A program made the translations under genes and the position numbers. From the IMG/VR virus record IMGVR_UViG_2713896798_000014: a stretch of DNA of 31,107 bases; one strand, given 5' to 3'. Within the stretch, counting starts at the first letter, position 1. Each line of letters starts with the position of its first letter. This DNA comes from a virus. Its lineage: Duplodnaviria > Heunggongvirae > Uroviricota > Caudoviricetes. Shown here one piece after another: positions 29,606 to 30,731 of this stretch. Under the pieces are notes generated by a model, which worked only from the letters and a program-made list of their open reading frames with translations, did no database searches and was not told the origin of the DNA.

Positions 29606-29624
29606 TACACGACCTCGTTATTTC

Positions 29625-29660
29625 GGGTTCCCATAAAACGTGGGAACCTGTGCGGGAACC
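29625..29660. promoter_or_regulatory. inverted/direct repeats in the int-dusA spacer
   Basis: GGTTCCCA (29626-29633) and TGGGAACC (29641-29648) form a perfect 8-bp palindrome with 7-bp spacer; third copy GGGAACC at 29654-29660. Confidence 0.35.
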
Positions 29661-29693
29661 TAACGCGAGAAAAATAGCCTGAAATGTTCAAAA

Positions 29694-30731
29694 ATGCACG
29701 ATAATCATGAAACACAAAAAATTAATCAAACCAGCGTGATGCCTGAAAAAACTGGTGTTTACTGGAATTCTCGGTTTAGCATTGCTCCTATGCTCGACTG
29801 GACGGACAGACATTGCCGCTATTTCTTGCGTCTGCTTTCCCGCAATACGTTGCTGTATACCGAAATGGTGACCACAGGGGCGATTATTCACGGTAAAGGT
29901 GATTATCTGGCGTACAGTGAAGAAGAACATCCGGTAGCGTTGCAACTGGGCGGTAGCGATCCGGCGGCGCTGGCGCAGTGTGCAAAGCTGGCAGAAGCGC
30001 GCGGATATGATGAGATCAACCTGAATGTCGGCTGCCCGTCTGACCGGGTGCAGAACGGCATGTTTGGTGCGTGTCTGATGGGTAATGCGCAGCTGGTTGC
30101 CGACTGCGTGAAAGCGATGCGCGATGTGGTGTCGATTCCGGTGACGGTGAAAACGCGTATTGGCATCGACGACCAGGACAGCTATGAATTTCTCTGCGAT
30201 TTCATCAATACCGTTTCCGGCAAAGGCGAGTGTGAGATGTTCATCATCCACGCACGTAAAGCCTGGCTTTCGGGGTTAAGCCCGAAAGAAAACCGTGAAA
30301 TCCCGCCGCTCGATTATCCGCGTGTGTATCAACTGAAGCGTGACTTTCCGCATCTGACAATGTCGATTAACGGTGGTATCAAGTCGCTGGAAGAGGCCAA
30401 AGCACACCTGCAACATATGGATGGCGTGATGGTCGGGCGCGAGGCGTATCAGAATCCGGGTATTCTGGCGGCGGTAGACCGGGAGATCTTTGGTTCCTCG
30501 GATACCGATGCCGATCCGGTGGCGGTAGTGCGCGCCATGTATCCGTACATTGAGCGTGAACTCAGCCAGGGGACGTATCTCGGCCATATTACCCGGCATA
30601 TGTTGGGCTTGTTCCAGGGTATTCCTGGCGCGCGGCAGTGGCGGCGTTATTTAAGTGAAAATGCCCATAAAGCGGGTGCAGACATTAATGTGCTGGAACA
30701 CGCGCTCAAACTGGTGGCGGATAAGCGTTAA
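29694..30731 (+). CDS. dusA: tRNA-dihydrouridine synthase A (5' end probably supplied by the inserted element)
   Basis: Translation from [33 protein letters not shown] onward matches DusA as recalled; the first ~25 codons may be element-derived. Confidence 0.85.

Follow-up and report, generated by a model that had tools for sequence, protein, structure and literature searches.

A probable dusA prophage junction in Escherichia coli and the candidate arm-type sites of its integrase

Integration at dusA in described systems

Integrases that target the 5' end of dusA were described by Farrugia et al. (2015) on islands of Acinetobacter and Pseudomonas: these islands supply a dusA 5' end, and their excision restores the native one (PMC4482086). 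By that description, the elements share with the locus studied here a divergent tyrosine integrase, a conserved 5' insertion site and an element 5' end fused in frame; they carry imperfect direct repeats at both ends, and the term 'arm-type' is absent from the text (PMC4482086). Balasubramanian et al. reported the Stx phage 1720a-02 (Phi-stx2dact, KF030445) in dusA of Citrobacter rodentium: the phage integrates 100 bp into the gene, with a 7-base perfectly conserved core and the phage dusA' in frame, and both excision and the formation of the attP circle require int (PMC6328086). The 21-bp semi-conserved attL/attR motif is present at the junctions of this 98%-identical phage, and neither arm-type sites nor the dusA promoter are discussed in the article (PMC6328086).

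The DNA analysed here, which we call the window, is the whole stretch of 31,107 nucleotides, and its final 2.6 kb contain int and dusA. The int gene (28508-29605, minus strand, an ORF of 365 aa) encodes a tyrosine integrase of the dusA-specific clade, with a match to Pfam Phage_integrase (PF00589) at residues 189-346. The dusA ORF (29694-30731, plus strand, 345 aa), whose gene serves tRNA modification, has its Pfam Dus domain (PF01207) at residues 30-340. Between the two lies a spacer of 88 bp (29606-29693), the outer part of the P arm of attP. A preliminary description of this locus had int start 88 bp from dusA and diverge from it, as the ORF coordinates, the strands and the Pfam matches bear out. 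The junction as noted there is already known, being one more copy of a described system, since the first of the two articles defines the integrase family (PMC4482086) and the second shows a near-identical phage integrating (PMC6328086).

From int through the spacer to dusA', phage 1720a-02 is 98.2% identical to window positions 28508-29798. The two differ elsewhere: 1720a-02 carries stx2 and a full morphogenesis region, whereas the prophage of the window is degraded by an insertion sequence, and the hosts are different. In phages mEp460 (JQ182728), SKA5 and Lys8385Vzw, the same integration module is present at 98-99.8% identity as an unintegrated attP, between DinI-like and PrtN-like genes; all three are free or induced phages with other cargo. 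The core described below occurs once in mEp460 and SKA5 and twice in tandem, as ATGCTCGAATGCTCGA, in Lys8385Vzw (MT225100; positions 3783-3798 of locus L006), where the second copy is probably artificial, produced when the ends of a prophage with both junction copies were joined into a circle. Many IMG/VR prophages carry copies of int that are 100% identical to that of the window, and a scan of the viral_contigs set with int returned near-identical copies only, with no further diversity.

The IS66-family element (~23487-26200, with tnpA at 23540-24217, tnpB at 24217-24564 and the transposase at 24584-26155) occupies the place of ~25 kb of head and tail genes in the closest relative; the morphogenesis region of the prophage appears to be lost, and this copy is probably defective. 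Between this element and the dinI-int module lie, in this order, a gene of the NleG family of type III effectors (26193-26831; Pfam E = 6e-44) and a 257-aa ORF with no Pfam match (26970-27743). The DinI-like gene (28198-28446, minus strand) is probably SOS-controlled, since a LexA-box pattern (CTG-N10-CAG), TACTGTGTTTGTATACAGTA, stands before it at 28460-28479, between its start and the int stop codon. At the left end of the window, an ORF with a SocA/Panacea domain (1-573) overlaps by 4 nt a 139-aa ORF of no known family (570-989), and the pair looks like a toxin-antitoxin-like cargo just inside attL; it is also found beside attP in Lys8385Vzw and SKA5, and a different gene is there in mEp460.

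The crossover point in dusA

We aligned the window with an uninterrupted K-12-type locus (L001), with the left prophage junctions of SCPM-O-B-7615 (L004) and 873.10 (L002), the most informative pair of lysogens, and with the attP of the free phages mEp460 (L005), SKA5 (L007) and Lys8385Vzw (L006). In these alignments, the sole stretch identical across attB, attP, attL and attR is the 8-bp ATGCTCGA, at 29790-29797 on the plus strand, where it covers dusA codons M33 and L34 and the first two bases of D35 and encodes the start of the conserved PMLDWTD motif. To the left of ATGCTCGA the window is phage-like, to its right it is host-like, and the left junctions of the relatives are the mirror image: in the attP of mEp460 and of SKA5, the left part of the window junction runs on into the right part of the relatives' attL.

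Compared with K-12, the dusA gene of the window differs at 18 of 96 nucleotides and 9 of 32 residues in its 5' segment, and at 0 of 942 nucleotides after nucleotide 96; the phage-supplied part is therefore 32 codons long (29694-29789, plus strand), and the host-derived remainder (29798-30731, plus strand) follows in frame. The same boundary has an independent marker, in that phage matches to the window stop at 29797-29800: free phage genomes contain int, the spacer and a 96-nt dusA' fragment beside it that terminates exactly at ATGCTCGA. When positions 29450-30000 were compared by megablast with 5426 complete E. coli genomes, the entire int-dusA junction was found in 742 of them, and in most of the others homology begins only at 29691, 3 nt before the dusA ATG, with 92-94% identity. 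The preliminary description had proposed that a phage integrated into the 5' end of dusA and supplied its N-terminus, and the mosaic gene, the attP of free phages and the displaced 5' end found in relatives all agree with this. It had also suggested an alignment with an uninterrupted dusA, which places the crossover in ATGCTCGA. The first ~25 codons, which it took to be element-derived, are indeed divergent and of phage origin, but the segment extends to 32 codons; similarly, dusA is not yet normal from 'RFSIAP' onward, since V30I and the synonymous changes in codons 31-32 are still phage-derived. The Pfam domain leaves out the first 29 residues of DusA, which vary freely among phage copies, and the start of translation may be either M1 or the conserved M16.

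The other end of the prophage was predicted to lie outside the window, and so it does: a search for the attL junction within the 31 kb gave no match at up to 3 mismatches. Judged from relatives, it is missed by only ~255 bp. Several genomes carry prophages that match window positions 1-23486 at 99.9-100% identity. The first letter of the window falls, in SCPM-O-B-7615, at the start of the Panacea-domain gene, and in the nearest relatives the displaced native dusA 5' end is found ~255 bp to the left of that point. In both SCPM-O-B-7615 and 873.10, the annotation given to this attL remnant is that of a truncated tRNA-dihydrouridine synthase; in the former it is a 105-nt pseudogene ('missing C-terminus') beside a K-12-type flank that contains a DUF2713 pseudogene and zur. 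The layout expected of attL is a K-12-type or short-type dusA 5' fragment that ends in ATGCTCGA, followed by TAGGATGTACC...TGGGAGCCTATTGGGAACC, and a matching junction is present in 663 genomes. The core repeat that had been expected at the far end is thus present in the attL of the nearest lysogens, which are relatives and not the source genome.

Taken together, the region is very probably attR, the right junction of a lambdoid prophage inserted in E. coli dusA by a dusA-specific tyrosine integrase. Strand exchange fell within the 8-bp identity ATGCTCGA: all DNA leftward of the core is that of the phage, with int, its 88-bp spacer and a 96-nt dusA' standing in, in frame, for the first 32 codons, and all DNA rightward of it is host dusA.

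Repeats in the spacer and on the arms of attP

The spacer contains three related motifs. The first, GGTTCCCA on the plus strand (29626-29633), is an inverted copy of the second, TGGGAACC (29641-29648, plus strand): the two are perfect reverse complements separated by a 7-nt gap, and form an interrupted inverted repeat. The third, CGGGAACC (29653-29660, plus strand), is a direct copy set in phase with the second at 12 nt. Within the 31 kb of the window, the exact 8-mer GGGAACCT is confined to the spacer, where it stands twice. The preliminary description had reported a perfect 8-bp palindrome with a third half-site; the repeats are present, but the palindrome is interrupted, and the motifs are better read as three of five arm-type sites. 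Its proposal of a candidate binding site for regulation or recombination gains, for recombination, the support of the comparisons that follow. We call the three motifs P1, P2 and P3.

The spacer is identical in the attP of the free phages mEp460, SKA5 and Lys8385Vzw, and there the DNA beyond the core can also be read. In these E. coli phages it contains TGGGAGCC and TGGGAACC, 11 nt apart, at ~50 and 61 nt from the start of the core, which gives attP five copies, one of them inverted, with start-to-start spacings of 12, ~207 and 11 nt. The homology of attP between phage lineages stops just past the second of these outer copies. The qPCR primers used for the attP of 1720a-02 fall on the P1/P2 and P' repeats (PMC6328086). 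In the Yersinia phage YeP1 and in phage EKP1, whose integrases are 67-69% identical to that of the window, the five-site geometry is kept, one inverted site and then direct ones, with spacings of 12, ~186 and 11 nt; the motifs themselves differ, being GGGGTGCTG in YeP1 and GGTGTACT in EKP1.

A wider scan of relatives, with one genome per species, yielded 61 related int loci, in 33 of which int abuts dusA. The P-arm trio stands at the same offsets from the int start (~+23, +39 and +51) in 28 of these 33 loci, which belong to different species and show at least five classes of P-arm motif: GGGAACC/GGGAGCC, GGGGTGC, GGTGTAC, GGTGTCC and GGGGAAC. The motif changes together with Int residues ~21-36, and its class tracks residues 29-36, which read VITYRESK, KYIYRENR, KHLHRETR, KRIYNESR and KIIHRSSK. 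Integrases that are 49-65% identical to that of the window are found without a dusA neighbour and without the trio at its usual offsets (loci L110-L124, L126, L131 and L134); those without an adjoining dusA presumably use other target sites.

In the integrase of the window, the catalytic Arg, His-x-x-Arg, His and Tyr residues of lambda-type integrases are all there: among 106 homologues, R222, H332 and Y342 are invariant, and H306 and R309 nearly so. An AlphaFold2 model built on the same 106 homologues has a mean pLDDT of 88.6 and predicts an N-terminal three-strand sheet with a helix (1-58), a linker, a core-binding domain and a catalytic domain. Residues 2-38 form the three strands and residues 41-58 the helix, at pLDDT ~90; beyond residue 58 come a flexible linker, the helical core-binding domain and the catalytic domain. 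Foldseek aligns the model with full-length lambda Int chains over 358-377 columns, with E-values of ~1e-9 to 1e-11 against lambda Int and Tn1549 Int, at a sequence identity of just 16-17% to lambda Int. By sequence, the N-terminus gave nothing: at E up to 10, Pfam returned only a weak match to a core-binding domain (Int_N, residues 72-165), and a search of PDB sequences returned matches to catalytic domains alone.

Since five copies at a fixed geometry, in three motif classes, occupy both arms of attP and are distinct from the core, we infer from these sequence comparisons that the spacer repeats are three arm-type Int sites, P1-P3, with two more, P'1 and P'2, across the core. P1-P3 and P'1/P'2 (+50 and +61 in attP) would be bound by the N-terminal beta-sheet domain, and Int on the five sites would form a lambda-like intasome ~233 bp long.

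The arm sites of lambda attP are laid out 2+3, over a span of ~240 bp. The present system resembles lambda Int and attP in the predicted three-domain fold of its integrase and in its repeated non-core sites on both arms; the span is also close, ~233 bp, whereas the layout is 3+2 with one inverted copy. In other respects the two are unlike: here int has its 5' end towards attP, with the putative xis on the other side of that site, and integration replaces the 5' end of its target, a protein-coding gene. In lambda, IHF has its H' site between the core and the P' arm sites, and an IHF-like site, AAACAAATAGTTA, lies at the same place in the attP of mEp460 (L005, 3811-3823), with one mismatch. It is the single one-mismatch site returned by a search for the IHF consensus, which shows no enrichment over chance. 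Equivalents found by eye are TATCAGTAAGTTA in YeP1 and AATCAGATAGTTG in EKP1. As for xis, a gene for a small protein of the PrtN family (1250-1531, minus strand; Pfam PF11112, E = 4e-23) has the same place beside attP in mEp460, Lys8385Vzw, SKA5 and EKP1, and in the circular phage it stands across attP from int. Its product may be the excisionase.

Int binding at the spacer sites could also modulate transcription of int, of dusA' or of both, since the sites lie between the two. One can go further and see in the repeats nothing but operators, for an excisionase, for a phage repressor or for Int repressing itself, with no role in a recombination complex. Integrase genes that face their own att site can be autoregulated through such sites, as in KplE1 IntS and P4; the repeats stand immediately before the int start, in what is likely the dusA' leader, and motif changes would equally track any other protein linked to the element. 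In principle, the covariation with the motif could follow such a protein, for example the excisionase. However, two copies lie past the core, where there is no int promoter, with a fixed 11-nt phasing in three motif classes; the conservation of attP ends right past these P' copies; and arm-type sites would be expected to show just such a 3+2 layout, over ~233 bp around the core. We thus consider a purely operator role unlikely, while noting that the operator and arm-site roles are not mutually exclusive.

That the inverted repeat and its third copy are a chance feature of a spacer of mixed AT and GC content is far less probable still. Short repeats are common: an 8-bp inverted repeat with a 3-20 nt gap arose in 1.2-1.5% of simulated 88-nt sequences, and one other 88-bp tile of the window (29061-29148, within int) meets the same formal definition, probably by chance. 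However, the inverted repeat together with a third 7-mer copy arose in only 1-2 per 10,000 simulated sequences, and the position and phasing of the trio are kept in 28 of 33 species-level relatives despite a changing motif.

Versions of the dusA 5' end and expression of the hybrid gene

Uninterrupted E. coli dusA has two 5' versions, which switch exactly at the att core (we compared L151, 2869-3010; L001, 1395-1600; and L152, L153 and L155 around 3000). The K-12 type, of 345 aa with 32 codons that begin MHGNSEMQ..., is found in ~80% of E. coli genomes; the short type, of 331 aa (MPAESHTVYPAYRFSIAP), with zur directly upstream, in 1043 of the 5426 (~19%). It is this variety of dusA 5' ends without an adjacent integrase that might suggest ordinary allelic variation, or a patch left by homologous recombination, as the source of the divergent 5' end of the window, with the adjoining integrase a coincidence; however, packaged phage genomes have the identical 96 nt beside int, with their end precisely at the core, the other prophage end holds the displaced native copy, and a near-identical phage was experimentally seen to integrate at dusA, which makes such a coincidence scarcely credible.

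All three E. coli dusA 5' versions switch exactly at ATGCTCGA. The short form and the block upstream of it are common to Salmonella-like and Klebsiella oxytoca loci without integrase, and this form looks ancestral. N-termini of the type 'MHxN..., 32 codons' adjoin int, for example in Erwinia pyrifoliae, and coexist with short forms in Cronobacter and Serratia. Identity among element-borne dusA' segments is only 72%, and it is 81-84% between these segments and the K-12 dusA'. In Salmonella bongori there is no int gene: 27 nt of its start are left, now reading MA*YSIEKR, the inverted pair of arm sites is kept, the third site has been hit by a 16-nt deletion, and a K-12-like dusA' follows without its ATG. 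By these marks the S. bongori locus is a clear fossil attR and would be an intermediate. Pfam assigned no family to the 294-aa gene of S. bongori, nor to the attP-proximal gene of mEp460.

These comparisons suggest that the K-12-type 5' end may itself be the relic of an older dusA-targeting element. In the K-12 interval between zur and dusA, tblastn and blastn searches for an int remnant or a fossil of the short-type 5' end gave nothing significant. A local alignment of that interval gave a 27-nt similarity around a promoter box, with a score of 32 against a shuffle maximum of 29; we rejected it as evidence of a relic, since ancestral short-type promoters score alike and the similarity does not discriminate. 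Upstream of its ATG, K-12 retains only this promoter-like box, short-type promoters are box-like too, and the dusA gene of C. rodentium is also 1038 nt long (PMC6328086), so that transfer may have run in either direction.

The promoter box brings us to the expression of the hybrid gene. The native dusA promoter stays at attL, and the phage must therefore supply one. An extended -10-like box, TATGTTATAGTA (TRTGnTATAGT), directed towards dusA, lies at 29588-29599 on the plus strand, within int codons 3-6 on the opposite strand; the same box is found upstream of dusA in K-12 (TATGGTATAGTA) and in short-type native loci (TATGCTATAGTA). Transcription of the hybrid dusA probably starts at this box, antisense in the first codons of int. 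The codon usage of the 61 related int genes points the same way: Ile6 is ATA in 52 of them, against 25% of Ile codons elsewhere in those genes; Tyr4 is TAT in 53, against 54% elsewhere; and at codon 5, Ser is AGC 31 times and AGT 8 times, and Asn is AAC 17 times and AAT never. A synonymous bias in codons 3-6 that preserves the box is suggestive and no formal test, because the sequences are interrelated. A scan of 29300-30000 for two-hexamer sigma-70 promoters and for terminators returned nothing at its thresholds, and a search by eye for the int promoter yielded candidates that match at most 8 of 12 positions, none of which we accept.

Taken jointly, that the K-12 5' end is a relic, that the promoter is embedded in int codons, and that arm-site specificity in this clade of integrases has shifted at least four times by changes to one beta strand is a proposition we hold to be evenly balanced between true and false. 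These readings go beyond the searchable literature, and their novelty is modest.

For annotation only, the value of the junction is that it fixes the exact boundary of the prophage and identifies the annotated 345-aa DusA as a phage-host hybrid. The same arrangement explains why lysogeny at dusA need not inactivate the gene. Matched integrase N-domains and arm sites, at identical geometry, form a natural series that could be used to study or re-engineer arm-site specificity. If the relic reading is true, the N-terminus and the promoter of the reference E. coli DusA would be phage-derived, which would affect how the start codon and the regulation of dusA are read.
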